Shown piece by piece: positions 2,105 to 60,435 of a stretch of 64,000 nt of DNA. The translations under genes were made by a program, and so were the position numbers. This stretch comes from an uncultured Clostridium sp. GTDB taxonomy: Bacteria; Bacillota; Clostridia; TANB77; CAG-508. Each line of letters starts with the position of its first letter. The stretch's first letter is position 1. The notes under the pieces were generated by a model. That model was given only the letters and a program-made list of their open reading frames with translations, did no database searches and had not been told where the DNA came from. Location: positions 17,186 through 81,185 of the forward strand of contig CAMBEE010000005.1 in NCBI GenBank assembly GCA_945865665.1. The letters are read 5' to 3'.

Positions 2105-2135
2105 TAGGGATTGGAGACCCGTCCCCTAATCCCTA
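2105..2135. repeat. Family-1 palindromic repeat, inverted copy
   Basis: TAGGGATTGGAGACCCGTCCCCTAATCCCTA, reverse complement of the 2012 copy with one difference. Confidence 0.7.
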
Positions 2136-6094: not shown

Positions 6095-6222
6095 TCGACC
6101 AATGGGGACGTTGTTAAATTGGTTAAATATATTAATTATATTTAACATCATTTTATATTTATTGTATCAACCAATTTAAGAACGTCCCCGTTGGTTGATT
6201 TAACAACGTCCCTATTGGTCGA
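6095..6222. repeat. Family-3 composite hairpin repeat (ACCAATGGGGACGTTGTTAAATTGGTT modules in inverted orientation)
   Basis: Nested inverted copies of a 27-nt hairpin module in the clpP-tig spacer; the same module forms the 33-bp terminal repeats at 59781-60010. Confidence 0.7.
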
Positions 6223-19920: not shown

Positions 19921-22017
19921 TTATACTATCAAATCAGTTTCTTCCAATTTTTCTGATAATTCTTGTTTAAATTTTATAATAGGTCTTCTAAATACTAAAC
20001 CTATCAATAATGGAATAATTGTATGTAATAATAACGCACCTATGTACATTATATAATTATTCCCATAGAATCCACCTATTGTTTCTCTTAATGCATTCAT
20101 TGCTGGATAGAATGGCATTATTGGTTGTAATTTTTGAAAAAATCCTGGTAATAGTTCAATTGGGAATGTTCCTCCTGAACCAGCAACTTGTAATACCATT
20201 ATTACTACTGCTGTTGCTTCTCCAACTTTTCCAAATGATATTGTTAGTGAATATACAATAAGCATAAACACTAAACTTGTGAGCATAATCGTTAATAAGA
20301 TTAATGGATAATTTACAACCTGAACTCCCATTATAATATCTCCAACTCCTATTACTAATCCTTGTAAAACTGCCAAAATTCCGAATGTCATAAATCTTCC
20401 GAAAAATGCTTGATATGGTTTTATTTCTCCTAGTTTTTTGTCTTTTTTTATATCTGTTTTTACTATTGATACTAGCAATGTGCATCCAACCCAAGATGCT
20501 AATACTGTATAGAATGGTGCCATTTTTGAACCATAACTATTTATTTCATATAAATCAATTTCGTTTGTAGCAATAGGTGTTGAGATAAAGTCTGCTACAT
20601 CATTTGGCTTGTTTTCTAACAGATTCAATATTTTCAAGTATAACTCACTTTGTGTTGCTCCACCTAATTTGCTTATTATTTTGTTTATATCATCTTCTAA
20701 GCTTACTAATACTGTATCAATATTTGTTGTTAGTTTGCCTGTACTATCTAATGCTTTTATTGTACTTGCCAATGCTGTATCACTTTTTCCTAAAGCTGTG
20801 TCTAATGTCGAAATCATATTTGCTATATTTGACATTGATGTTGATGCATTAGAAAAAGCTTTGTTTAATGCTGGTTTTACTGTGTTATTATATTGTGTTT
20901 TTATATTTTGTATTTTTTGATTTAGTTCTGCTGATTTTGCTTTTAAATCTGCTAATGAACCTTCGTCCATTTTATTTAAGTCTTCTATCATTTTATTAAT
21001 ATCGTCAAGTGCCTGCTGTGTTAGTTCTTTTAGTTTGTCTAATGTTACTCCTTGTGTTCCGTTTAATGAATCTATTATGCTATTTAATTGTGATAGGACA
21101 CTTGATAAACTATTTAATGCATTTAACAAATATTCTTTATTTTCTTCTATTTTTCCTGACTGAATAACATTATTTACATTTGATGATATTGTTGCTGCTG
21201 CATCTATTATTAGTCCTATATTGTTGTTAACATCTGTATATACTCCATTAAATGACTTTATTATGTCTTTCATATTTGATATATTTTTTGAAGATGTTGT
21301 TGATATATTACTTACTGTTGGTAATAAGTCTTTAACCGCATTTAATGCATTTCCTGCTGAATCTGATGCAAGTGATATTGTGTTTAGTGTTGCTCTTAAT
21401 TGTTCTATACTTTTATTTGTGTTTTTTAATTTTGTAATTACATCTGTTGTTGTTGCTGTTCCTTCCGCCACAACATTTGCATCTTCTGCAGTGTCCATTA
21501 CTTTATATACAATTGCATTTACAAATGCTTGGTCTAGGTTGTTTTCTATTGTTCCTATTGCTTTGTTTACAATAATTGGTGCAATTGGATTTTTCTTTTG
21601 ATTTACATAGAAATCAAATTGTGGTTTTACTATTTCTGTTCCATCAAAAAGTGTTGCTATTTTACTTGTAAAATCTTCTGGTAAAATTATTACTCCATAA
21701 TATTTTCCCTTATCGACATTTGCTTTTGCATCATCTTCGTCAGTAAATATCCATTTCATTGCTGTGTTTGATTTTAAACTGTCTACCAGCAAGCTTCCCA
21801 TATTTATGTCTTCGTTTAATATTGTTAGACCTTGGTCTTTGTTTACTACTGCTATTGGCAGGTTTCCTGTGTTGTCATATGGATTCCAGTTTGAGTCTAT
21901 GTTTAGCCATGCATATATTCCTGGTATGAATAACAGGCCTATTAATATTATTACTGCTATTTTTCTTTTCCAGACTTTTTTCATGTCTGTTTTGAATATT
22001 TCTATTATTTTTTTCAT
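19921..22017 (-). CDS. YhgE/Pip-domain membrane protein (phage infection protein-like, ABC-2 type)
   Basis: N-terminal TM, long Ser/Thr/Asn-rich helical ectodomain, C-terminal multi-TM bundle. Confidence 0.75.
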   Translation of the reverse strand: MKKIIEIFKTDMKKVWKRKIAVIILIGLLFIPGIYAWLNIDSNWNPYDNTGNLPIAVVNKDQGLTILNEDINMGSLLVDSLKSNTAMKWIFTDEDDAKANVDKGKYYGVIILPEDFTSKIATLFDGTEIVKPQFDFYVNQKKNPIAPIIVNKAIGTIENNLDQAFVNAIVYKVMDTAEDANVVAEGTATTTDVITKLKNTNKSIEQLRATLNTISLASDSAGNALNAVKDLLPTVSNISTTSSKNISNMKDIIKSFNGVYTDVNNNIGLIIDAAATISSNVNNVIQSGKIEENKEYLLNALNSLSSVLSQLNSIIDSLNGTQGVTLDKLKELTQQALDDINKMIEDLNKMDEGSLADLKAKSAELNQKIQNIKTQYNNTVKPALNKAFSNASTSMSNIANMISTLDTALGKSDTALASTIKALDSTGKLTTNIDTVLVSLEDDINKIISKLGGATQSELYLKILNLLENKPNDVADFISTPIATNEIDLYEINSYGSKMAPFYTVLASWVGCTLLVSIVKTDIKKDKKLGEIKPYQAFFGRFMTFGILAVLQGLVIGVGDIIMGVQVVNYPLILLTIMLTSLVFMLIVYSLTISFGKVGEATAVVIMVLQVAGSGGTFPIELLPGFFQKLQPIMPFYPAMNALRETIGGFYGNNYIMYIGALLLHTIIPLLIGLVFRRPIIKFKQELSEKLEETDLIV

Positions 22018-22083
22018 GTTTCCTCCTAGTATTTTTTATTATGATAATTTTATAATAAGGGTGATTTTTTGTCAATATAAAAT

Positions 22084-22112
22084 CGGGATTGAAGACCCGT
22101 CCCCCAATCCCG
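22084..22112. repeat. Family-1 palindromic repeat
   Basis: CGGGATTGAAGACCCGTCCCCCAATCCCG between pheT stop and the YhgE gene. Confidence 0.7.
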
Positions 22113-22118
22113 ATTTTT

Positions 22119-24491
22119 TTATTTTCTTATTTCTAAACCTTTGTTTTCTAAATCTTTAATAATATTATCTAAAATAGTATTAATTTCTTCATCATTTAAA
22201 GTTCTATCAGGTGTACCAAATGTTAATGAATATGCAATACTTCTCTTATTAGAATCAATATTTTTACCTTCATAAACATCGAATACGTTTATATCTAATA
22301 ACAATTTTCCAGCCTTTTTCTTAATTAACATTTCAACTTCTTTTGATGTCATATTTTTGTCAACTAATAATGCTAAATCTTTTTTTACAACAGGGAATTT
22401 TGAAATTTCTTTGAATTTCATTTTTCCTACTCTTTTTTCTAGCAATTTGTCTAAGTTGATTTCCATTACATAAACCGCTTCTTTTTCTACTGATGGATGT
22501 ATTCTTCCTACAATTCCTACAACATCATTATTTACTGAAATTTCTGCAGTTTGACCTGGATGGAATTCTGCTGGCATTTGTTTTGGTAATACAAAACTGT
22601 ATCTTCCTGCATATCCTAAATAGTCTAATAATTCTTCTGTTACACCTTTAATGTCATAGAAGTCAACATTTTTGCTATGTCCTATTCCTTCATAATATTT
22701 TCCTGTCATTAACACACAGATTTTTTGATTTTCTCCGTATTCTTCACCTTTTTTCCAGAATCCTTTTCCAATTTCAAAAAGGCAAACATCTTTGTTTTCA
22801 CGTGCTTTGTTGTATTCATAAATTTTATATAATGAAGGTATCATGCTATATCTTAATGTGTTTCTTTCTTCTGTTATTGGGTCTAATAATCTGACTTCTT
22901 CAAATTCGTCTGTTGTGAATTTGTGTACGTCTTTGTCATTTATTAAGATATATGATAATGTTTCGTTTAATCCCATATTTGACATTTTTGCTCTTATTTT
23001 TCTTGCTGTTTTGTCTAGATGTCCCATTTTCATTGGAACTACTGGTAGTTTACCTTGGATATTGTCAACTCCATAGATTCTTCCGACTTCTTCTATTAAA
23101 TCTGCTCTAATTGATATATCAATTCTTCTTGTTGGTACTGTAACGATTACAGTCTCTTCTTTTACATCTGTTTTAAAGTCTAATTTTCTAAATACATCAA
23201 CAATATCTTCTTTTGATATGTTTGTTCCTAACACATCATTGATTTCTTTATATGATATTTCAATTACTTTTTCTTCATTTTTTGTAACATCGTATTTTAC
23301 AATTCCTGTTTCAATTTCTGCATCTGCATATTTTTGTAATAATGTACATGCTCTTTCCATTGCCATATAAGTTCTTGCAGGGTCAAGTCCTTTTTCAAAT
23401 CTGTTGCTTGCTTCACTTCTTAATATTTTATTTGATGTTTTTCTTACTTTTACTGAATCAAATATTGCTGATTCGATTATTACATTTTTAGTTGTTTCTT
23501 CAACTTCTGTATCTAATCCCCCCATAACACCGGCTAATCCGATAGCTTTTGTTCCGTCTGTTATAACTATATCTTCATTTGATAAAGTTCTTTCTGTGTT
23601 ATCTAGTGTTGTTAATTTCTCTCCATCTTCTGCCATTCTAACAACTATTTTGTTGCCCAAATTATCTGCATCGTAGAAGTGTAATGGTTGACCTAATTCT
23701 AGCATTACATAGTTACTGATGTCTACAACATTGTTTATTGGTCTAATTCCACAAGCGATTAGTCTGTTTTTTATAAATTCTGGACTTTCTTTTATTGTTA
23801 CATTTTTAGCTTTTTTTGCTAAGAATAGTCTACAATTTTCTGTATCAACTCCAACTGAAAATTCTTTATTTACATCTTCTCCGCTTTCTTTGTATCCATA
23901 TTCAACCGGTTTTACTTTTTTGTCATAAATTGCTCCTAGTTCATAAGCCATACCTAAAATACTTAATAAATCTCCTCTATTTGCAGTTAATTCAAAATCA
24001 ATAATGCCATCATCTAATCCCATATATTTAATTGGGTCTTCTCCAACAGGTGCATCTGCTGGTAATTCATGTATTCCATTTTTATCTGCTTCAGATAAGA
24101 ATTTTTTATCGATTCCTATTTCATATAAAGCACATAACATACCATTTGACTCTTGGCCTCTTATCATACCTTTTTTGATTTTGAAGTCTCCTGGAAGTTC
24201 TGCTCCAACTTGTGCGACAATTACTTTTATGCCTTTTCTGGCATTTGGTGCACCACAAACTATATCTAATATTTCACTTCCAATATCAACTTTACATAGA
24301 TGTAAGTGGTCAGAATCTGGATGCATTTCACATTCTTTTATTTCTCCTATTACTAGTTTTGTTGCATTTACTAATTTTTCTGCAGAATCATATTCATTTC
24401 CAGCTTTTGTCATCGCTTCTGCTATATCTTTTACACTTAATTCGTTATCTAAATCTATATAGTCTTTTACAAAATTTAAACTTAAATTCAT
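22119..24491 (-). CDS. pheT: phenylalanine--tRNA ligase beta subunit
   Basis: 790 aa with tRNA-binding, B3/4, B5 and FDX-ACB domain order; follows pheS. Confidence 0.95.
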   Translation of the reverse strand: MNLSLNFVKDYIDLDNELSVKDIAEAMTKAGNEYDSAEKLVNATKLVIGEIKECEMHPDSDHLHLCKVDIGSEILDIVCGAPNARKGIKVIVAQVGAELPGDFKIKKGMIRGQESNGMLCALYEIGIDKKFLSEADKNGIHELPADAPVGEDPIKYMGLDDGIIDFELTANRGDLLSILGMAYELGAIYDKKVKPVEYGYKESGEDVNKEFSVGVDTENCRLFLAKKAKNVTIKESPEFIKNRLIACGIRPINNVVDISNYVMLELGQPLHFYDADNLGNKIVVRMAEDGEKLTTLDNTERTLSNEDIVITDGTKAIGLAGVMGGLDTEVEETTKNVIIESAIFDSVKVRKTSNKILRSEASNRFEKGLDPARTYMAMERACTLLQKYADAEIETGIVKYDVTKNEEKVIEISYKEINDVLGTNISKEDIVDVFRKLDFKTDVKEETVIVTVPTRRIDISIRADLIEEVGRIYGVDNIQGKLPVVPMKMGHLDKTARKIRAKMSNMGLNETLSYILINDKDVHKFTTDEFEEVRLLDPITEERNTLRYSMIPSLYKIYEYNKARENKDVCLFEIGKGFWKKGEEYGENQKICVLMTGKYYEGIGHSKNVDFYDIKGVTEELLDYLGYAGRYSFVLPKQMPAEFHPGQTAEISVNNDVVGIVGRIHPSVEKEAVYVMEINLDKLLEKRVGKMKFKEISKFPVVKKDLALLVDKNMTSKEVEMLIKKKAGKLLLDINVFDVYEGKNIDSNKRSIAYSLTFGTPDRTLNDEEINTILDNIIKDLENKGLEIRK

Positions 24492-24552
24492 TTTCTAATC
24501 TCCTTCCAATTTATAATTTTCAAAAGAAACAAGTATTGCTAGGCAAAATTAA

Positions 24553-24598
24553 TTTAAAAGGCAAGGGCGCATACGCGTGTATGTAACCGCGTTTTAAA
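24553..24598. repeat. 46-bp conserved hairpin element (copy 1), pheS-pheT spacer
   Basis: TTTAAAAGGCAAGGGCGCATACGCGTGTATGTAACCGCGTTTTAAA. A near-identical copy sits at 54057-54102 upstream of cysS. Confidence 0.7.
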
Positions 24599-24636
24599 TT
24601 AATTTTAACGCCGCAAGACGAAGTTTATTTTGGAAA

Positions 24637-25686
24637 TTACTCTTCGTCTTTTCTATCAAATTGACTTAAAAATCTAACATCATTTGTATATAAATATCTC
24701 ATATCAGTAATACCATATCTAAACATAGCCAATCTATCAATGCCTGTACCAAATGCAAAACCACCGAATTTTTCTGGGTCATATCCATTCATTTTTAAAA
24801 CATTTGGATGAACAATTCCTGCACCCAAAACTTCTATCCAACCTGTTTGTTTACATAGGTTACATCCTTTTCCACCACATTTGAAACATGTAACATCTAC
24901 TTCATAAGATGGCTCTGTGAATGGGAAGTAACTTGGTCTAAATCTTAAATCTAAATTTGCTCCTATTATTTTTCTAACAAAAACTTCTAATGTTCCTTTT
25001 AAATCCGCTAAAGATACATTCCTTTCTTTTTTGTCAATTACTAATCCCTCTATTTGATTAAATTGATGTGAATGTGTTGCATCGTCTTCTCTTCTATATG
25101 TTTTCCCTGCTGTAATCATTCTTATTGGTGACTTTTCTGTATTTGCCATCATTGTTCTCGCTTGAACTGCTGATGTTTGTGTTCTTAATAAGTATTCGTC
25201 TGTAATATAGAAGCTATCTTGCATATCTCTTGCTGGGTGTCCCTTTGGAAGGTTTAGTCTTTCAAAACAATATTCATCATTTTCAAGTTCTGGTCCTGTT
25301 ACTACATCATATCCCATTGATACAAATAAGTCTTCTATGTCTTCTATTATTCTTGTTACAGGGTGTAAACTTCCTCTTTTCATTTTTGTGCTTGGTAATG
25401 TGATGTCAATTTTCTCTGCTTCCAATTTTTTATTTAATTCTTCTGTTTTGAATTTTTCTTCTTTTTCTTCAATTAATTTTTCTAGGCTTTCTTTAGCTTC
25501 ATTTACTAATCCACCTATTATTGGTCTTTCTTCTGGGCTTAGTCCTCCCATGCCTCTTAATACTGCTGTAAGTTCACCTTTTTTTCCTAGGTATTTTACT
25601 CTTACATTTTCTAATGTTTGTAGGTCTTCTGCTTTTGCTATTTCTTCAATAGCTGTTTTTTTGATGTTTTCAATTTGTTCTTTCAT
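24637..25686 (-). CDS. pheS: phenylalanine--tRNA ligase alpha subunit
   Basis: 349 aa, class II motifs ([25 protein letters not shown]). Confidence 0.95.
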
Positions 25687-25699
25687 CTTTTCTCCTTTC

Positions 25700-26010
25700 C
25701 AAATTTTCGTGTACTTTTATCCTTTTGTCCCATTAGGGGACGGTTCTTTTTGAGACATCGATTCTAAATAAGACATCGATGCAAAACAAAAATTGCCTTT
25801 AAAAAGGACATTTAAAAATCCATTTCTATTCTATTAGCACTTATTTGTGCTTATAGGACGAAATGGATTTCCGTGGTACCACCTAAATTTATTAATTTTT
25901 CTTTATACTTTAAAACATTTTTAATATACTCTTTTATTAATAAAATGCATATTTAATATAAAGTTACTAACCTCATTTTAGTTTTAACGGTGCAACCGCT
26001 TCTTCCTAAT
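25700..26010 (-). promoter_or_regulatory. T-box leader (Phe) with terminator/antiterminator
   Basis: On the minus strand, AGGTGGTACCACGG (fwd 25872-25885) matches the T-box consensus. It overlaps the 5' arm of an 11-bp terminator stem (AAATCCATTTC / GAAATGGATTT, fwd 25815-25871) followed by a U-run. Exact 5' boundary unknown. Confidence 0.65.
25726..25757 (-). repeat. Family-2 hairpin repeat between the T-box terminator and the pheS RBS
   Basis: Minus strand: TGTCTCAAAAAGAACCGTCCCCTAATGGGACA. Confidence 0.7.
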
Positions 26011-26034
26011 TTTTATTCTTGTTGGGTATCTTAT

Positions 26035-26065
26035 GTCCCAAACAGAACCGTCCCTAATGGGACAT
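26035..26065 (+). repeat. Family-2 hairpin repeat, inverted relative to the 25726 copy
   Basis: TGTCCCAAACAGAACCGTCCCTAATGGGACA. Confidence 0.7.
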
Positions 26066-26282
26066 TTTCAAAAGAAGTCCTAAAAAGTGAAATTTCTATA
26101 TATAGTTTTAAATATCTTTCAGCCTCGGATATTTTCTCTGTTTGTTTATTTATATATATACTTTGCTTTTTAATTGGATTTATTTTATTTGTTAATCTTT
26201 TATTATGTTATCATAGTTTGAGCTATTTTTCAAGCTTTTTTGAAAATTTAAATTTGTTTATTTTTAATAATTTTGCATTTTT

Positions 26283-26930
26283 TTATTCTTTTAATAATTT
26301 TTCTATTTCTTCTTTTTTTAGTTGTGTTGCTTCTTCAACTTGTTCACTTGTTAGTCCCATCTTAAATAATTTTTTTGCAATTTCTATGCTTTTTTCTTTA
26401 ATTCCCTCAATTTTACCTTCTATTTTACCTTCTTTTCTTCCCATATCAATATACATCTGATTTTCTCTTCTTATCATATCAACCACTGCTAACACTTCTT
26501 TTCCCCTCCCTTCTTCTATTTTATTTACTAATCTTTCTACTTCATCATCTCCTAGCTTTTCTTTAAATACTATTTTTATATTTTTCTATGTCTTTTATTT
26601 CTATTTTTGCATTTATTGCTTTATTTATTATTAAAACTGCATTTTCTTTTTTATCTAATATTGTTCTAAATATTTTATCATGCTCTTGATTTATTTCTTT
26701 CTCCTGAATATTTGCTTTTGAACTCATTCTTTCATATTTTACTTTTGGTTCTTGTAATTCAGCATAATAATTCTGATTATTATTTTCATCAATTATTTTC
26801 CAAAGTTTTTCGAATATTGTTTTATATTTTATATATTCTTTATATGTAAACTTTTCTATATTAATTTCATCTCCTTCATTATAATATTTGTTTTCATTTT
26901 TGTCAACATTTATTTATAAGTTTATATGTA
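26283..26930 (-). pseudogene. Rpn-family (PD-(D/E)XK, transposase_31-like) recombination-promoting nuclease, degraded remnant
   Basis: C-terminal 70-aa ORF ends GKIEGKIEGIKEKSIEIAKKLFKMGLTSEQVEEATQLKKEEIEKLL, the characteristic Rpn tail. An upstream fragment MSSKANIQEKEINQEHDKIFRTILDKKENAV carries the N-terminal HD..FR motif. The nuclease core is missing, although a TTGACA-17-TATAAT promoter (26878-26906) is still intact. Confidence 0.5.
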
Positions 26931-27101
26931 TTTTTTAATCACCTACTTTCATATTTTTTTAAATTCATTTTGGATTTTTTCTTTGATTTTAAATCTTTGA
27001 ATTAATTGATTTGAATAAAATTAAAGTACATTTATAATACAACAAAATGCTGAACTTTGCAACATTTTTTTATCGCAAAATTCGACATTTTCTGTTTAAT
27101 A

Positions 27102-27393
27102 GTTACAATTCACAGCTTTAAAAATTTTGTGTGCAAGTTGCCGCATTAAGGGTTATATATATTTGATATTGTATCCTGTTCATTACGTTTAAAAAGAAAA
27201 TCTAAAATATCTAACTGAGCCTCTCTCACTTAGGACAGAAATGTATATATGTATTTCTTTTGTGAGCATTCCTCAGTTTTTTATTTAAGATTTTCTATTT
27301 TTCACTTCAATCAAACGAATACAATATCAAATATATATAACCCTTAATGTGACAACTTGCACACAAAAATTTTAAAAAGCTGTGAATCGTAAC
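27102..27393. mobile_element. MITE-like non-autonomous element, copy 1 (292 bp, ~75-bp TIRs, TTTAATA target duplication)
   Basis: Ends GTTACAATTCACAGCTTTAAAAATTTTGTGTGCAAGTTGCC... and its inverted complement; flanks (g)TTTAATA on both sides; no ORF. Confidence 0.75.
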
Positions 27394-27420
27394 ATTTAAT
27401 AATCAAATATAAAACTAATA

Positions 27421-34114: not shown

Positions 34115-35026
34115 TTATCTAAATTTATTTAAAACATCTTCAATTTTATCTTTTGTCGCCAAGAACAGAGTGTTTGTCGTTGCTGTTGCTGCTGCAACCC
34201 CCATTTGAAGTGCCTTTTCATAATTATTAAATTGTTCATGTCCTGCTAAAAATCCTGCAACCATTGAATCTCCTGCACCAACTGTGTTTATCGCTTCTTC
34301 TGCATTTAGTGCGTTAATTTTATATGAATATCCATTTTCGTCTAAAAGTACAGCTCCATCACTTCCCATTGAAACAATAACATTTTGAGCGCCTTTTGAC
34401 TGTAACTGTTCAGCATACTCTAGCGCCTCATCTTGGTTTAATATTTTGACGCCGAAAATTTCTTCTAATTCTTCTTGATTTGGCTTTATTAAATATGGCT
34501 TGTATTTCAATGTTTTAAGTAGCAAATCACCTGTTGAATCAACTACAATTTTTATGTTTTTATGTTCTAGTTTTTTACAAACTTCTTCATAAATACTGTT
34601 TGATACGCCATTTGGCACACTTCCTGATAGCACTAAAATATCTTCATCTTCTATTATTTCCAATTTTTTGTATAATAATTCAAGATATTTTGAATCAATA
34701 TATGGACCTTTTGCATTTATTGCTGTTTCTCGATTTTCTTCTAATATTTTTACATTTATTCTGGAATTATTATTTTCGATTTCTATGAAATCAGTCTTAA
34801 CTCCATATTTTTGTACTTGTTTTTCTATTTCATTTCCTACAAATCCCGCTATAAATCCCATTGCCGTTGTTTCTTGCCCTAATGTTTTTAGTACTATTGA
34901 TACATTTATTCCTTTTCCTCCTGGAAATATATATTCTTCTTGGCTTTTATTTATCTTTCCTGTATTAAATTCTTTTGATTTTATTACATAGTCTAATGCT
35001 GGATTGAATGTTATTGTGTATATCAT
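34115..35026 (-). CDS. fruK: 1-phosphofructokinase
   Basis: MIYTITFNPALDY start with RBS AAAAGGAGG; PfkB ribokinase-family motifs (GGKGINV, DTVGAGD). The track ORF is extended 55 codons upstream of the real start. Confidence 0.9.
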   Translation of the reverse strand: MIYTITFNPALDYVIKSKEFNTGKINKSQEEYIFPGGKGINVSIVLKTLGQETTAMGFIAGFVGNEIEKQVQKYGVKTDFIEIENNNSRINVKILEENRETAINAKGPYIDSKYLELLYKKLEIIEDEDILVLSGSVPNGVSNSIYEEVCKKLEHKNIKIVVDSTGDLLLKTLKYKPYLIKPNQEELEEIFGVKILNQDEALEYAEQLQSKGAQNVIVSMGSDGAVLLDENGYSYKINALNAEEAINTVGAGDSMVAGFLAGHEQFNNYEKALQMGVAAATATTNTLFLATKDKIEDVLNKFR

Positions 35027-35040
35027 TTTTCCTCCTTTTG

Positions 35041-35070
35041 AGACACATGGGACAGTTTGATTTTGTCTCA
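35041..35070 (-). repeat. Family-2 hairpin repeat abutting the fruK RBS
   Basis: Coding strand: TGAGACAAAATCAAACTGTCCCATGTGTCTCA then AAAAGGAGG-N5-ATG. Confidence 0.7.
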
Positions 35071-35427
35071 TTCTTTTGTCGAATCTTGTCATTTTGTTAT
35101 TTGCTTTATTTTTCTTTTGTTTTAAATATTTCCCAAAAGCAAAAAGAATATTCATTTCTGAATATTCTTTTACATAATTTAAGTTTTTCAACCCAACTAT
35201 TGACTTTCAGCCACTATTATATCATATCACAGCTAAAACAAAAATCTCCAGTTCTTTTAAATAAGAACTGAAGATTTAATGGTGCCAACGAAGTAGTTAT
35301 CTACAACTTTTTTGGCTCTCATAACGATTGATTCAAAAATCAATCAATTTATTAAAGTATATCATATTTTCTATAAATTGCAATAAATTTCTTCAAAAAA
35401 ATTGCCACGAAATTTTGTTCTTAAGTA

Positions 35428-48100: not shown

Positions 48101-48773
48101 TTTGAATACATAACAAAACTTCGTGATTATATGCATCTTCTCTTTTTAAATAATGTGCGTCATTTGTTGCAACTAATGGAATATCAAGTTTTCTGGCTAA
48201 TTGAACTAATTTTTGATTTGCTAAAACTTGTTCTCTTAATCCATTGTTTTGAATTTCTATGTAATAATCATCACCAAAAACTTTTTTATGCCATAATGCT
48301 ATTTCTTCTGCCTTTTCAGTTTGGTTTGCTAATAAAGCTTGATTTACTTCTCCTGCAAGACATGCACTTAGGCATATTATGCCTTTATGGTATTTCTCTA
48401 ATATTTCTCTATCTATACGAGGTTTATAGTAGTATCCATCAACAAAACTTAATGAAACTAATTTACTTAAATTTTTGTATCCTTCATTATTTTTGGCAAG
48501 TAAAATTAAGTGATAGTAATGGTTGTCTATTCCTGGTTCTTTTTGTAATCTTGAACGTGGTGCAACATATACTTCACATCCTATTATTGGCTTTATCCCT
48601 TCTTTTTTACATGCTTTATAAAAATCAATAGCTCCAAACATTACTCCATGGTCTGTTATTGCTATTGAGTCCATTCCTAATTCTTTTGCTCTTACTGGTA
48701 AGTCTTTTATTCTATTTGCTCCGTCTAATAAACTGAATTCACTGTGTATGTGTAAGTGTACAAATTTTGACAT
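45192..48773 (-). CDS. dnaE: DNA polymerase III alpha subunit (DnaE-type)
   Basis: N-terminal PHP domain (HLHIHSEFSLLDG), polymerase core, OB-fold; 1193 aa. Confidence 0.95.
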   Translation of the reverse strand: MSKFVHLHIHSEFSLLDGANRIKDLPVRAKELGMDSIAITDHGVMFGAIDFYKACKKEGIKPIIGCEVYVAPRSRLQKEPGIDNHYYHLILLAKNNEGYKNLSKLVSLSFVDGYYYKPRIDREILEKYHKGIICLSACLAGEVNQALLANQTEKAEEIALWHKKVFGDDYYIEIQNNGLREQVLANQKLVQLARKLDIPLVATNDAHYLKREDAYNHEVLLCIQTGKRMSDEDRMKFDTDELYVKSPEEMSEYFKAFPDAIENTVKIAEQCNVEFEFGHTILPNYDVPPEYPTHYDFLKELCDKGLEKRYGKNLSEEIQKRAEYELGIIKKMGYVDYYLIVWDFIHYAKTNGIPVGPGRGSGAGSILAYAIEITDIDPIKYGLLFERFLNPERISMPDFDVDFSDERRQEVIDYVARKYGHDHVSQIITFGTMAAKMVIRDVARVLDYPYAEADALAKMIPNEIHITIKKALEQNKELRDRYETDEPTKKILDIAMGLEGMPRQASTHACGVVITKDPVDTYVPLYVRDGQINTQYIMTTLEELGLLKMDFLGLRNLTVIQNTIDMVKENHGIDVEFDHDMSDPKVYKLWQDGNTSGIFQFESQGMTNFMKELKPDCLEDLIAGVSLYRPGPMDQIPRYIRGKQNPGHNEYTHPSLEPILNVTYGCMVYQEQVMQIVRDLAGYSLGRADLVRRAMGKKKLDVMAKEREVFIHGQVDEDGNVVVPGCVRNGIDEASANKIFDEMAEFAKYAFNKSHAACYAVVSYRTAYLKAYYPAEFMAATLNSYLGNLDKAPQYIDECKRLGIQILKPDINKSFEKFTVEVEKKDSMYVESEIKSNSKNDIETDGVGKIRFGLGAIKNVGTVPVENIVAERQENGEYKNFTDFCERIADTQVNKKCVESLIKAGVFDEFEQTRATLLASFETIMDTIQSGKKKGFNGQVSMFDIGTEQEKEEMEKQKYQFNEHPEMPEKELLSMEKEMLGIYISGHPLEKLREQIMHSTNINSMDLVQISEQNLTNNDNGANGDEMANVQARNSKPKFVDGQKVKYAGIITSIKKKYTKNNKIMAFITIEDLYGTAEVLAFENAVIGAGRSLVEENIVLIDGRLSIRDDQEPTIIANEIKDLGEEKPKVVTFDITDFTEEQKEKLRCAIKYFSGDRNNMNVQVKIGDDIRPCGAIYYNDEIKKIFDGICGQE

Positions 48774-48790
48774 TTTTTTCTCTCTTTCTT

Positions 48791-48821
48791 TGTCGCATTG
48801 GGGACAGTTCTGTTTGATACA
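48791..48821 (-). repeat. Family-2 hairpin repeat about 20 nt upstream of the dnaE RBS
   Basis: Coding strand: ATGTATCAAACAGAACTGTCCCCAATGCGAC. Confidence 0.65.
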
Positions 48822-48932
48822 TCAGTTCCCAGAAGGACATTTTTCTGTATTATATTATCTTTTTTTCTTAAAGTCAATGGCAATAAAATTGAAAAGGGTC
48901 CAATATACATTTGTATATTAGACCTTTCTCTT

Positions 48933-49405: not shown

Positions 49406-49762
49406 TGGTGGAGATGAGGGGAGTCGAACCCCTGTCCATAATACTTTCCAAATAGACCTCTACAAGTTTATTTTATCTTTTATTTTCATCTTTAACTCGC
49501 GGATAAACACGCTAATTAAAAATATAGCTTTATAAAATACCCACTATTTCTAAAGCCAAAATAGCTTTGTTTCCTACTTTAGTTATAACACCCTTACTAA
49601 ATCAGTAGGCTATTTAGTTCAGATGACGTTGCAAACTAGGCAGCGTATGCTAATTCTTCGTTGTTAGCGTTTATTTTTATTTTCTCGTTTTTTAAGTGGC
49701 CAACGAGAATCCACTACTTGCTATCTGTTTTTCTGGTAATATGTCGAAACCTTTACATCCCC
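49406..49762 (-). ncRNA. ssrA: tmRNA (ssrA)
   Basis: 5' end GGGGATGTAAAGGTTTCGAC..., 3' tRNA-like end GGACAGGGGTTCGACTCCCCTCATCTCCACCA. Internal tag frame GCT AAC AAC GAA GAA TTA GCA TAC GCT GCC TAG gives a tag ending LAYAA. Confidence 0.85.
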
Positions 49763-49842: not shown

Positions 49843-50309
49843 GTTACAATTCACAGCCTTAGAAATCTTTGTGTGTAAGTTGCCACCTTAAGGGTTTTAT
49901 ATTTGATATCATATCTGCTTTATTGAAGTGAAAATTAGAAAATTTTAAATATAAAACTGAGGAATGCTCACGGAAAAAATGTATATATGTATATGATTTG
50001 AAACATTTTCTCGGTTCAATACGCAACATATGAATTTCTAAAATAAATTTATGGCACCCTTTCACTTAGTCCTCGCTTCGCTCGACGTGAACTCTTTCCA
50101 TAAATTTATTTAAGAAATTCTAATATTGCTCCAATCACATTCGAAAAGTTCAAAATCATATACATATATACATTTTTGGCCTGAGTGAGAGCGGCTCAGT
50201 TTTGTATTTTAGATTTTCTTTTTGAACGTAATTAACAGATATGATATCAAATATAAAACACTTAAGGTGGCAACTTACACACAAAAATTCTTTAGCCGTG
50301 AATTGTGAC
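49843..50309. mobile_element. MITE-like element, copy 2 (467 bp, inverted relative to copy 1, 8-bp AAATAAAT target duplication)
   Basis: TIRs GTTACAATTCACAGCCTTAGAAATCTTTGTGTGTAAGTTGCCACCTTAAGGG... and complement. Perfect AAATAAAT direct repeat on both flanks. Interior shares blocks with copy 1 plus a ~150-bp extra GC-richer palindrome. Confidence 0.8.
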
Positions 50310-50339: not shown

Positions 50340-51259
50340 ATGTCAATTGTTCCAACAAATATTAATTATAACTACTCTATATTAAAACAAAATTTAAATA
50401 CTTTAAAATCAACATATTCATTTTTAGATATTACAGTTGTCGGTAAAAGCGTCCTTGGAAAAAATATTTATGTTGTTAGACTTCGGTACTGGCCCAAAAG
50501 AGGTTTTTTATTCTGGTTCAATTCATGCAAATGAGTTTATAACAAGTACTTTACTCATGAAATTTATAGAAGATTATTGTAATGCATATGTTCAAAACGA
50601 AAATCTTTATGGATATTCAATCCATGATTTATTTAGCAATGTCTCTATTTATATAATGCCTATGGTAAATCCTGACGGGGTTGATTTAGTAGCAGGAAAT
50701 ATCTCAAAAAATTCATATGCTTTTATTAATGCTAAAAAAATATCTGAAAATTTTAATGATATTCCTTTCCCTCTCGGCTGGAAAGCTAATATCATTCGGT
50801 ACTGATTTAAATTTACAATTTCCTGCTGAATGGAATAAAGCTAAAGAAATCAAATATTCTCAAGGATTTAATAAACCTGCTCCCAGAGATTTTGTAGGAT
50901 TTGGTCCTTTGACTGAACCTGAAGCATTGTGCATTTATGATTTCACTCTTATGCATAATTTTAGACTTATAATTGCTTTTCATACTCAAGGGCAAGAAAT
51001 CTATTGGAATTTTCAAAATATTAATCCACCATCTGGCTATACTATTGCAAATAAGTTTGCAGAAGTAAGTGGTTATGCTGTAGCCGAAGTCCCTTATAAT
51101 TCAAGTTTTGCTGGTTTTAAAGACTGGTTTATACAAGACTATAATAGACCAGGTTTCACTATTGAAGCTGGTCTTGGAGAAAATCCTTTGCCTCTTGAAC
51201 AATTTGATCAAATCTATATTGGTAATTTAGGTATTTTAATTTTAGGTGCTATTTTATAA
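50340..51259 (+). pseudogene. M14-family metallopeptidase (gamma-D-glutamyl-diamino-acid endopeptidase-like), two frameshifts
   Basis: RBS AGGAGG; frames 50340-50534, 50437-50805 and 50717-51259 join into one M14 protein (SIHANEF zinc site, FHTQGQEIYW, GFTIEAG). One-nucleotide indels near 50495 and 50790. Confidence 0.7.
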
Positions 51260-58705: not shown

Positions 58706-58723
58706 ATTTTCCTTTCTAAAAAT

Positions 58724-58793
58724 CGGGATAGGGGGACGGGTCTTTAATCCCTAAAAAATTTTTTAGGGATTAAAGACCCGTCCCCCTATCCCG
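58724..58793. repeat. Family-1 palindromic repeat, tandem inverted pair
   Basis: CGGGATAGGGGGACGGGTCTTTAATCCC-A6T6-GGGATTAAAGACCCGTCCCCCTATCCCG between nrnA stop and truB start. Confidence 0.75.
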
Positions 58794-58798
58794 ATTTT

Positions 58799-59755
58799 TT
58801 ATTTTAATACTTTTCTTATTTCTTTCATAACTTTTTGTTTTACTTGTTCAACGTCTCCTTGAGCTATAGCTCCTGCTGCTTTTTCGTGACCTCCGCCACC
58901 AAACATCATGCATATATCAGAAACATTAACATAGTCATTTGAACGCATAGAAATTTTATATGTATTTTCGTCATCATCCTTTTGTCTAATAAATACTGAA
59001 ACTTCAACACCTTCAACATCTCTACCTATCTCAACTAATCCTTCGTGGTCTCCTATTCCAGCATTTACTTCTTCCAAGTCTTTATTTGTTATATATGTAA
59101 AAGTAACTTTTCCATCTTCTAGGAATTCCATTCTGTCTATTGTTCTTCTCATTAATTCAAAGTTAGCTTTTGTTTTTGTTTCTAAAACTCTTTTATAAAT
59201 ATCTGAAACATTAACACCTTTTTCTAGTAATTCCGCTGTAAATTCAAATGTTTCAGGTGTTACTCCTGAATATCTGAATCCACCTGTGTCTGTAATGATT
59301 CCTGTTAATATACATGTTCCTAACTCTTTGTCTATGTTGATATTAAAGTATTGGAACATTCCTATTAATATTTGGCAACAAGCTGGTGCAACTGGATTTA
59401 CAAAGTTAATATCTCCATACATTTTGTTACTGCTGTGGTGGTCTATTACTATTGTTTGTTTTGCCTTTTCAAAATATTCATTTCCTACTAGCCTTTTGAA
59501 GTCCGCGCAGTCCAAGCTTATTGCTAAGTCATATCTTTCTACATCTGAATCTATTTTTATTTCTTCCCTTCCAGGTAGAAAGTCAAATATTTTTGGAACT
59601 TCTCTTATTATTACATCAGCATTTTTTCCTAGTTGTTTTAAGGCAACTCTCATAGCTAAACAACTTCCAATTGCATCTCCATCTGGTGTTTCATGTGCCA
59701 TTATTACTATTGTTTCAGCTTTTTTTATTTCTTCTAATATATTATCTAAAGTCAT
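58799..59755 (-). CDS. nrnA: bifunctional oligoribonuclease / pAp phosphatase NrnA (DHH-DHHA1)
   Basis: DHH motifs (HETPDGDAIGS, DHH), DHHA1 GGGH. Start placed at MTLDNIL (RBS GGAG); track ORF starts 7 codons earlier. Confidence 0.85.
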   Translation of the reverse strand: MTLDNILEEIKKAETIVIMAHETPDGDAIGSCLAMRVALKQLGKNADVIIREVPKIFDFLPGREEIKIDSDVERYDLAISLDCADFKRLVGNEYFEKAKQTIVIDHHSSNKMYGDINFVNPVAPACCQILIGMFQYFNINIDKELGTCILTGIITDTGGFRYSGVTPETFEFTAELLEKGVNVSDIYKRVLETKTKANFELMRRTIDRMEFLEDGKVTFTYITNKDLEEVNAGIGDHEGLVEIGRDVEGVEVSVFIRQKDDDENTYKISMRSNDYVNVSDICMMFGGGGHEKAAGAIAQGDVEQVKQKVMKEIRKVLK

Positions 59756-59780: not shown

Positions 59781-60010
59781 GTGAACCAATGGGGACGTTG
59801 TTAAATTGGTTGAATTACTAAATGTGTTTACTAATTAAAATTTTTTATATATTAGGAAAGTTATGCAACTTTCCTAATATATAAAATTACATTGCACAGA
59901 AAATTTATTTCATAAATTTTCGCGCACGAACAAATTTACTGAAAATTGAAAATTTTCAGATTTGTTCTTTTAAATTTTCAACCAATTTAACAACGTCCCC
60001 ATTGGTTCAC
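59781..60010. repeat. Family-3 MITE-like element (230 bp) bounded by perfect 33-bp inverted repeats
   Basis: GTGAACCAATGGGGACGTTGTTAAATTGGTTGA ... TCAACCAATTTAACAACGTCCCCATTGGTTCAC, with internal palindromes and no ORF. It sits between rbfA stop and nrnA start. Confidence 0.75.
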
Positions 60011-60406: not shown

Positions 60407-60435
60407 CGGGATTGGAGACCCGTCCCCTAATCCCG
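60407..60435. repeat. Family-1 palindromic repeat in the infB-rbfA spacer
   Basis: CGGGATTGGAGACCCGTCCCCTAATCCCG; no U-run follows on the transcribed (minus) strand. Confidence 0.7.

Follow-up and report, generated by a model that had tools for sequence, protein, structure and literature searches.

The stretch of DNA examined here (the window: 64,000 nt of contig CAMBEE010000005.1 from an uncultured Clostridium sp., assembly GCA_945865665.1) carries short hairpins immediately upstream of the Shine-Dalgarno (SD) sequences of fruK, dnaE, and pheS. These hairpins are most probably copies of a short, palindromic, interspersed repeat of the same kind as the repetitive extragenic palindromes (REPs), the MITEs (miniature transposable elements with inverted repeats), and SPRITE, that has spread in a clade of uncultured gut Clostridia. 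The sequences are repetitive, are distributed across this clade, vary in presence and absence at orthologous sites, and follow a rule of position and orientation with respect to genes. As copies of a dispersed repeat, the hairpins upstream of fruK, dnaE, and pheS would not be regulators specific to these genes. An earlier note, made from the sequence of the window, had grouped the hairpins into a single family and had favored a cis-regulatory RNA element of the 5′ untranslated region (UTR) over random repeat insertion. Random insertion is indeed a poor description, in that placement is strongly constrained; the hairpins nevertheless constitute a repeat family.

The canonical element, sub-family 2a, is 33 nt long, reads ATGTCCC-AAAAAGAACC-GTCCC-CAAT-GGGACAT, and is found in dozens of copies in low-GC metagenome-assembled genomes (MAGs) of gut Clostridia. 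The consensus of the 2a copies is ATGTCCC-AAA[A/C]AGAACC-GTCCC-N4-GGGACAT, in which a 6–7-bp stem of variable sequence encloses an asymmetric loop with a conserved core, AAAAAGAACCGTCCC(C), and the inner GTCCC-N4-GGGAC hairpin of the canonical form is in competition with the outer stem. A pattern scan with a motif taken from the window copies, run over one genome per species, returned 71 loci in about 10 gut MAGs (24–35% GC; uncultured Clostridium/Clostridia), many of them multi-copy, together with seven chance matches in high-GC genomes. The MAGs CAMCQH01 and CAKPQY01 each hold at least 15–25 pattern-perfect copies, and the clade that carries the element is known from both human and bovine samples. 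A scan of viral contigs for the element gave no matches. The core occurs in species-specific “dialects,” including GAACCGTCCCC, GAACCGGCACC, GAACCGACACC, and GAAACGTCCCC. Among the loci used for comparison, which are cited by L numbers, L022 (CAKOUU01) is 96–97% identical to window positions 21790–26579 (∼4.7 kb around pheST), and L084 (a UMGS1516 contig) is 96% identical to the window across dnaE.

Membership in the family was assessed with a covariance model, R1, built from copies outside the window. R1 detects a copy at 26033 with 57 bits, the pheS copy with 44.5 bits, and the dnaE copy with 43.5 bits (E ∼1e-18 to 7e-13), and it leaves the fruK hairpin undetected even at E ≤ 10. What had been listed as one family is therefore a mix of two sub-families, with the pheS, dnaE, and 26033 copies in 2a and the fruK hairpin, which orthologs and a motif search place elsewhere, in 2b. 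Compensatory changes in the outer stem, such as TGTCTC/GAGACA and TGGACC/GGTCCA, were found in seven cells in four pairs, a level reached by 0–5 of 500 shuffles; this result concerns the outer stem alone, the inner GTCCC/GGGAC bases being fixed by the search pattern. In the window itself, CGTCCCC occurs 10 times (0.29 expected), and none of the 10 occurrences falls in coding DNA, though 82% of the window is open reading frame (ORF; P ∼4e-8). Altogether, the window contains 16 hairpins with a GTCCC(C) core, every one of them outside real genes.

The position of the repeat relative to genes was analyzed with 95 copies from outside the window, against a null model of uniform positions within the same intergenic spaces (20,000 randomizations). 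The two orientations are represented about equally. Of 31 independent sense copies, 21 end against the SD sequence, 11–24 nt ahead of the start codon (6.3 expected); of 29 antisense copies, 22 are positioned −11 to +2 nt relative to the stop codon of the upstream gene (2.9 expected). No randomization attained either count. When an antisense copy is at distance 0, the stop codon, be it TAA, TGA, or TAG, is directly followed by TGTCCC, and in nine antisense copies at distance −10 or −11 a TAG stop is supplied from within the element. On its far side, the element is A-rich, and the distance from there to the next gene varies. Families F1 and F3, described below, and sub-family 2b obey the same placement rule as 2a, and by hand check, 15 of the 16 core-bearing hairpins of the window conform to it, the exception being an insertion in a T-box leader. 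Non-repeat terminators in the window are 8–33 nt from stop codons. In L065, L077, and L025, the element forms stop-element-SD junctions, and the sense orientation is the only one seen in leaders and between cistrons. The roughly 20 genes downstream of sense copies, among them holA, polC, murD-like and clpC-like genes, frr, rpe, FTHFS, a hydrogenase, several aminoacyl-tRNA synthetase (aaRS) genes, and regulators, belong to replication, cell wall, translation, metabolism, and regulation and form no functional set.

These observations bear directly on the three hairpins of the window. As the earlier note had stated, the fruK, dnaE, and pheS copies are all sense with respect to the downstream gene. 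Its placement of the hairpins inside 5′ UTRs also agrees with the present data: the space from hairpin to SD is too short for a promoter, and a predicted dnaE promoter lies just upstream of the repeat, so that the copies are considered to lie within transcribed leaders. The note had further named a lack of orientation or position bias relative to start codons as evidence that would count against its regulatory idea; sense copies are strongly biased toward the SD, and this check does not refute the idea.

At the fruK locus, the hairpin is real and occupies positions 35040–35069 (− strand), reading GAGACAAAATCAAACTGTCCCATGTGTCTC; its coordinates had been given off by one, and the 1-nt gap reported between hairpin and SD does not exist. 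The stem pairs GAGACA (35069–35064) with TGTCTC (35045–35040) around an 18-nt loop, AAATCAAACTGTCCCATG, with a decayed core, and a seventh pair, T35070–A35039, draws on the first A of the SD stretch AAAAGGAGG (35031–35039, −), which adjoins the hairpin without a gap and precedes the start ATG at 35026. Two GACAA repeats, GACAAGATTCGACAAAAGAA (35071–35090, −), form a 5′ extension, such that the leader reads GACAAGATTCGACAAAAGAA-T-GAGACA-AAATCAAACTGTCCCATG-TGTCTC-AAAAGGAGG-AAAA-ATG. The GACAA-N5-GACAA-N-GRGACA layout is also present in L060, L079, L082, and L101/L102. The motif of sub-family 2b, GAGACA-N9-TGTCCC-N3-TGTCTC, has a loop related to that of 2a, and the extended layout GACAA-N5-GACAA-N-GRGACA-N9-TGTCCC-N3-TGTCNN recurs at the unrelated loci L015, L025, L059, L060, and L066, as well as upstream of dnaE in L101–L106. 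These sequences place the fruK hairpin in a sister sub-family of 2a with flipped arms.

Considered alone, the fruK hairpin is thermodynamically ordinary (−7.3 kcal/mol, z +0.74); it is validated by its retention in eight orthologous lineages and by the other genomic copies of 2b. TGAGACA-N18-TGTCTCA lies against the SD in 8 of 10 orthologous fruK leaders (FruK identity 78–96%; human and bovine samples), namely in the window and in L079, L080, L082, L083, L164, L165, and L166. The stem is unchanged in these lineages, and the loop and flanks vary, with AAATCGGACTGTCCCACA, AAAATGCACTGTCCCTCA, AAAAAGCACCGTCCCACA, AAATAGGACTGTCCCAAA, and AAATAGCAATATTCCACA observed in addition to the window loop; the L165 loop, AAAAAGCACCGTCCCACA, equals the canonical 2a loop at 15 of 18 positions. 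The whole hairpin segment is missing from two orthologs, L081 (83%) and L167 (69%). The pattern among orthologs reads as an early fixation of a 2b copy at this locus, with the core decaying and the stem kept. The fruK product is a PfkB family protein by Pfam, and phosphotransferase system (PTS) fructose genes are located downstream in the orthologs.

Several further features were observed around fruK. The frame remains open through the hairpin, giving a maximal ORF of 358 aa (window 34115–35191, −), and many database FruK entries (homologues P0001–P0120) are called at 308–346 aa instead of 303 aa; because the repeat leaves the frame open, automatic annotation over-extends the FruK N terminus. 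An exact-protein lookup with the window FruK gave no match. A 2b copy also lies within called ORFs in L082 (3126–3155), L083 (∼1731–1760), and L066 (5719–5748). The L082 and L083 ORFs are 723–725 aa long and contain Mur_ligase_M, MurT_C, and GATase_3 domains, and translation may run in frame through the repeat there, at a murT-gatD junction. Farther upstream of fruK, an AT-rich palindrome, AAAGAATATTCAGAAATGAATATTCTTT (35143–35170, −), is recognizable in partly degenerate form in all ten fruK orthologs, including the two without the hairpin, and may be an operator or a terminator.

The dnaE copy, ATGTATCAAACAGAACTGTCCCCAATGCGACAA (48790–48822, −; 43.5 bits, E 7e-13), has an intact core and degenerate outer arms. 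It had been described as lying about 20 nt before its ribosome-binding site (RBS); instead, it directly adjoins a purine-rich, SD-like stretch, GAAAGAGAG, and ends 17 nt before the ATG at 48773. A truncated extra copy, ATGTCCTTCTGGGAAC (48825–48840, −), lies next to it, and both hairpins are expected to be within the 5′ UTR because the predicted promoter, TTGACT-17-TATAAT (48849–48877, −; 11 of 12 matches; conserved in L085–L088), is upstream of them, the transcription start being deduced from this promoter. The identity of the product was confirmed by Pfam (DnaE).

Comparison of eighty dnaE loci (74–99% identity) reveals how variable the element is at this site. Among lineages 93–96% identical in dnaE DNA, the window carries one and a half copies 3′ of the promoter; L085, L086, and L088 contain the same block with a decayed core (TGTTCTAAATAGAATTGTTCT...); and L087 has the same promoter and lacks exactly 47 nt (...AAAAATG^AAG...), corresponding to 48791–48837, the block to which the truncated copy belongs. 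No target-site duplication was found at this single clean pair of empty and filled sites, only ATG and A microhomology. The element is absent upstream of dnaE in L089–93. More distant species contain other core dialects at the dnaE site, usually against the SD: three tandem TGACAAAAGAGAACCGGCACCAAATGTCA units in L099, tandem ACAAAAAAGAACCGACACC in L121/124, ATGTCGCATCAGAAACGTCCCCACTGAGACA in L116, and four GGGGACGGTTCTYTTT units plus one inverted unit in L119. Below ∼80% dnaE identity, no element is present at dnaE. The dnaE 5′ region is a hot spot for differing repeat dialects. A transfer-messenger RNA (tmRNA) with the tag ANNEELAYAA was noted just upstream of dnaE (window 49406–49762, −), and dnaE directly adjoins the 3′ end of the tmRNA in other species of the clade.

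The pheS copy (25725–25758, −; 2a, sense, 44.5 bits) follows the T-box terminator and precedes the RBS GGAAAGGAG, as proposed; it lies 39 nt upstream of the ATG, and the product of the gene was confirmed by Pfam (PheS). It is kept in three close genomes, those of the window, L022, and L072, and in L072 it fills the space from the terminator U-run to AAAGGAGG. The T-box leader itself (RF00230; 25851–26183, −) scores 65.2 bits (E 7.5e-14), below the Rfam gathering score, such that Rfam at its gathering threshold reports no T-box before pheS and an E-value search finds one interrupted by the repeat. The low score is due to the 2a copy at 26033–26065 (+), antisense to pheS, which sits within the apical loop of T-box Stem II and appears as an insertion of ∼50 nt in the Rfam T-box alignment. 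This copy had been described as flanking the leader on its other side. The orthologous T-box of L072 scores 92.7 bits and has the stem loop without an insertion, and L072 is therefore the empty site for a copy that is filled in the window and in L022. With the dnaE site (L087) and the fruK site (L081 and L167 versus eight carriers), this T-box loop makes three orthologous positions at which the repeat is polymorphic.

T-box-regulated aaRS genes are over-represented downstream of sense copies, with four further cases beyond pheS. Sense copies lie against the SD, between T-box and aaRS start, in L020, L021, L039, L074, and L072 and at window 25725–25758, a recurrence that far exceeds the genomic share of such genes. 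On the strand opposite the T-box leader and its inserted repeat, a 156-aa ORF with a GTG start (window 25990–26460, +) overlaps both and is almost certainly spurious.

Because the element is asymmetric, its two orientations differ as RNA. The antisense reading, UGUCCC-AUUG-GGGAC-GGUUCUUUUU-GGGACAU-UUU, folds at −16.7 kcal/mol (z −4.4) into a succession of stem, UUCUUUUU, stem, and UUUU that a simple criterion classes as a terminator, and, read antisense, the pheS, 26033, and fruK copies are also picked up by a terminator scan. With its stable hairpin and trailing U-tract, an antisense copy thus resembles an intrinsic terminator. The sense reading consists of an A-run and a weak C/A-rich hairpin without a U-tract (−9.1 kcal/mol, z 0.05), and it leaves the SD unpaired. 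These folds suggest how the placement rule could have arisen. Strong termination by the 33-nt element would be expected in the GGGGACGGUUCUUUUU orientation only. Purifying selection would remove terminating copies from leaders, 5′ UTRs, and operon junctions; at gene ends, such copies would be retained and probably used, those on stop codons having been co-opted as terminators, as proposed for the pneumococcal SPRITE (PMC3049150). Sense copies should not terminate and would be tolerated as 5′-UTR hairpins. At some loci, the sense hairpin may also be exploited as a protective or insulating 5′ hairpin by the SD. The best candidates for such a sense-strand RNA role would be fruK, with its invariant stem and drifting loop, and the T-box-regulated synthetase genes; the role would not be general, because the dnaE copy is lost or decayed in relatives.

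A number of points weigh against the interpretation of the hairpins as a dispersed repeat sorted by orientation. The 26033 copy is in the “terminator” orientation inside the leader of an essential gene and so efficient termination by at least this copy can be excluded; its U-tract is broken up (UUCUGUUU), and the outer stem has no U-run after it. The orientation filter explains neither the flush placement of copies at SD sequences and stop codons nor the absence of non-terminating copies from 3′ ends. Candidate reasons for these two features are the insertion of inverted doublets in tight junctions, a target preference, and selection for outward-facing unidirectional terminators. The proposal that all single copies are remnants of inverted doublets that filled tight stop-SD junctions is not general, because on the far side of many single copies lies an ordinary promoter, a native terminator, or a T-box. 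In addition, no transposase or other mobilizing gene was found among the genes of L079–L083 or the window ORFs tested, and flank logos contain no duplicated bases, in line with the lack of a clear target-site duplication at the dnaE pair. The search pattern by which most copies were found fixed the core, and core conservation in that set is therefore in part by construction. Gene starts and stops were taken from our own ORF and SD heuristic rather than from annotation.

Other explanations account for parts of these data. It is unlikely that the hairpin by the SD is a dedicated 5′-UTR cis-regulatory RNA that has been maintained to control how fruK, dnaE, and pheS mRNAs are translated or how stable they are. 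Parts of this proposal stand: sense copies are placed tightly against the SD, eight lineages share an identical fruK stem (TGAGACA/TGTCTCA) with varying loops and flanks, the pheS copy is kept in the window, L022, and L072, and sense copies recur between T-box terminator and SD in the four further aaRS genes. Hairpins at 5′ ends stabilize Firmicute mRNAs; examples are the Bacillus subtilis thrS leader in its processed form and the leaders of aprE and ermC. However, the downstream genes, about 20 in number, are functionally unrelated, half of the copies are antisense and at 3′ ends, close relatives lack the dnaE copy or carry it in decayed form, L081 and L167 do without the fruK hairpin, and the sense fold is weak, with the SD unpaired. 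Moreover, near-identical copies within genomes point to recent spread and not to independent conservation. It is quite unlikely that the core AAAAAGAACCGTCCC(C), kept across at least four stem families and the dialects, is a recognition site for a trans-acting protein or RNA, with the hairpins making up a genome-wide gene-boundary system of polar “diode” terminators or insulators at SD and stop that perhaps controls mRNA processing or stability at both ends.

The single geometric rule, by which the GGGACA-type end is always toward the start or stop of the adjacent gene in tandem and convergent contexts and in four families, could also reflect outward-facing unidirectional terminators, selected at both gene ends to stop transcription that leaves the gene (sense at the 3′ end, spurious antisense at the 5′ end) and never blocking transcription that enters it. 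Each copy has an A-run or UUCUUUUU tract on the side that trails the hairpin for outward transcription. Promoter-like sites are as common as in shuffled sequence (133 found, 133 expected; 28% GC), which makes spurious initiation plausible; a consensus promoter scan is by the same count uninformative in this AT-rich DNA, and the near-perfect dnaE promoter alone was used. The benefit of ending antisense RNA at 5′ ends is nevertheless speculative, the rule does not require a flush position at the SD, and the 26033 copy, within a leader, has no gene to face; this explanation is very unlikely. Movement as single-stranded hairpins by a Y1 (HUH) transposase (RAYT/TnpA), as for REP/REPIN or IS200/IS605-type elements, would fit short extragenic palindromes with frequent inverted doublets (F1 58718–58799, F3 59781–60010, and 2a pairs). 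It is highly improbable, given that tblastn with IS200 TnpA found nothing in 1.14 Mb (best E 3.9; a weak negative, with partial genome coverage), that there is no conserved GTAG-type 5′ tetranucleotide, the consensus beginning with (A)ATGTCCC in A-rich flanks, and that sense and antisense copies are at ∼1:1 in gene arrays co-oriented with replication and thus show no lagging-strand bias. The probability that the hairpins are a DNA uptake sequence, an intrastrand-triplex motif, or chance hairpins is negligible. The core is conserved with species dialects, inverted pairs resemble terminators, as with Neisseria uptake sequences, and the three-arm layout is superficially like that of Escherichia coli BoxC/TMECO (PMC4666352). 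An uptake sequence was rejected because none of the 10 core copies (CGTCCCC) is in coding DNA, and a triplex repeat of the BoxC/PIT/TMECO kind (PMC4666352) was rejected on inspection: the arms TGTCCC/GTCCC are antiparallel Watson-Crick complements of GGGACA, of mixed purine and pyrimidine composition, and not mirror repeats. Chance is excluded by the excess of the core and by the covariance-model scores, and the lack of copies in the viral contigs scanned argues against this whole group.

Two further hairpin families in the window, F1 (GGGATTGGAGACCCGTCCCCTAATCCC) and F3 (AACCAATTTAACAACGTCCCCATTGGTT), have the same core as the 2a and 2b hairpins. An F1 hairpin, GGGATTGAAGACCCGTCCCCCAATCCC (22085–22111, +), follows the pheT stop by 7 nt and is terminator-like; other F1 copies are at 2013–2039 (−), 2107–2133 (+), 58725–58751 (−), 58766–58792 (+), and 60408–60434 (+), and the inverted doublet at 58718–58799 has 41-nt arms that are 100% complementary. 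The F3 inverted doublet at 59781–60010, between rbfA and a DHH-family gene, has perfect 34-nt arms with AACAACGTCCCC, one toward a stop codon and the other toward a start, and it encloses a perfect 20-bp AT-rich palindrome at 59843–59886. Additional F3 copies are at 6099–6122 (−), upstream of clpP, and at 6171–6194 (+). Inverted doublets were also observed elsewhere, as 2a pairs in L001, L026/L044, L031, and L047 and as 2b pairs in L015 and L060. A second, unrelated, MITE-like repeat family with long inverted arms is present in the window at 27087–27408 and 49864–50289, as well as in L054; its arms are 84–91 nt long and 83–86% complementary, and one 54-nt pair is 96% complementary. Two overlapping ORFs at 50470–50805 and 50717–51259 (+), each matching part of Peptidase_M14, are probably a frameshifted pseudogene.

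The repeat shares features with several known systems. It is not part of the T-box (RF00230), one copy being inserted in a stem loop and another lying after the terminator. REP, BIME, and REPIN sequences of Proteobacteria are reportedly extragenic imperfect palindromes of 20–40 nt, present in many copies and often as inverted doublets; REPs are said to act as 3′ mRNA stabilizers or attenuators and, near stop codons, to affect translation of the upstream gene. They differ from the present element in their GTAG head and RAYT ties, neither of which was found here (for RAYT, in the 1.14 Mb searched), and in that the conserved part of a REP is its stem; in the present families, it is the loop core, and stem sequence differs from one family to another. 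Similar to the present copies, ERIC/IRU (Yersinia) and Correia (Neisseria) elements, which are transcribed as mRNA hairpins and affect stability via RNase E/RNase III, show orientation-dependent placement near stop codons (see also PMC3049150). Those elements are ∼70–150 bp long with true terminal inverted repeats, and Correia duplicates a TA target, in contrast to the lack of duplication here. The MIRUs of mycobacteria are reportedly short repeats that fill cistron junctions in operons, touching the stop and the next start region, which resembles the stop-element-SD junctions of L065, L077, and L025; MIRUs, however, occur in tandem and in one orientation only, and they are read as small ORFs that overlap the codons on either side.

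SPRITE, which behaves as the antisense copies do, is a small interspersed repeat in a Firmicute that consists of an RNA duplex followed by a U-rich tract, is strongly enriched near gene 3′ ends, and has been proposed to be co-opted as a terminator (PMC3049150). The antisense copies likewise combine a hairpin with a U-tract just after stop codons. There is no sequence relationship between the two, the present element is shorter (∼33 nt), and half of its copies adjoin the SD of the gene that follows, in the orientation that would not terminate, a placement undescribed for SPRITE. BOX of Streptococcus pneumoniae is a modular intergenic repeat, of which 36 instances extend into the very 3′ end of a gene and provide its stop codon, and orientation-dependent effects on neighboring genes have been reported for it (PMC3049150). 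The nine copies that supply a TAG stop from inside the element are similar in this respect. BOX is larger (boxA/B/C) and tightly folded via terminal inverted repeats, and no SD-flush placement has been reported for it. Searches of the literature by core sequence, which gave unrelated eukaryotic primer matches only, and by topic found no description of the present family.

The repeat superfamily is thus undescribed in the literature searched, and it has two unusual traits, the conservation of a loop core instead of the stem and a very clean polar gene-boundary rule, by which the element always has the same end turned toward, and in contact with, the neighboring gene, at the SD in one orientation and at the stop codon in the other. 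In practical terms, such repeats lower Rfam scores, as for the pheS T-box, extend called ORFs, as for fruK, and can mislead motif searches for regulatory RNAs. For the uncultured, small-genome gut Clostridia that carry it, the element represents a natural system for how selection sorts asymmetric hairpin repeats into terminators on the one hand and tolerated or exploited leader hairpins on the other, and it bears on the renewal of intergenic signals in compact AT-rich genomes.

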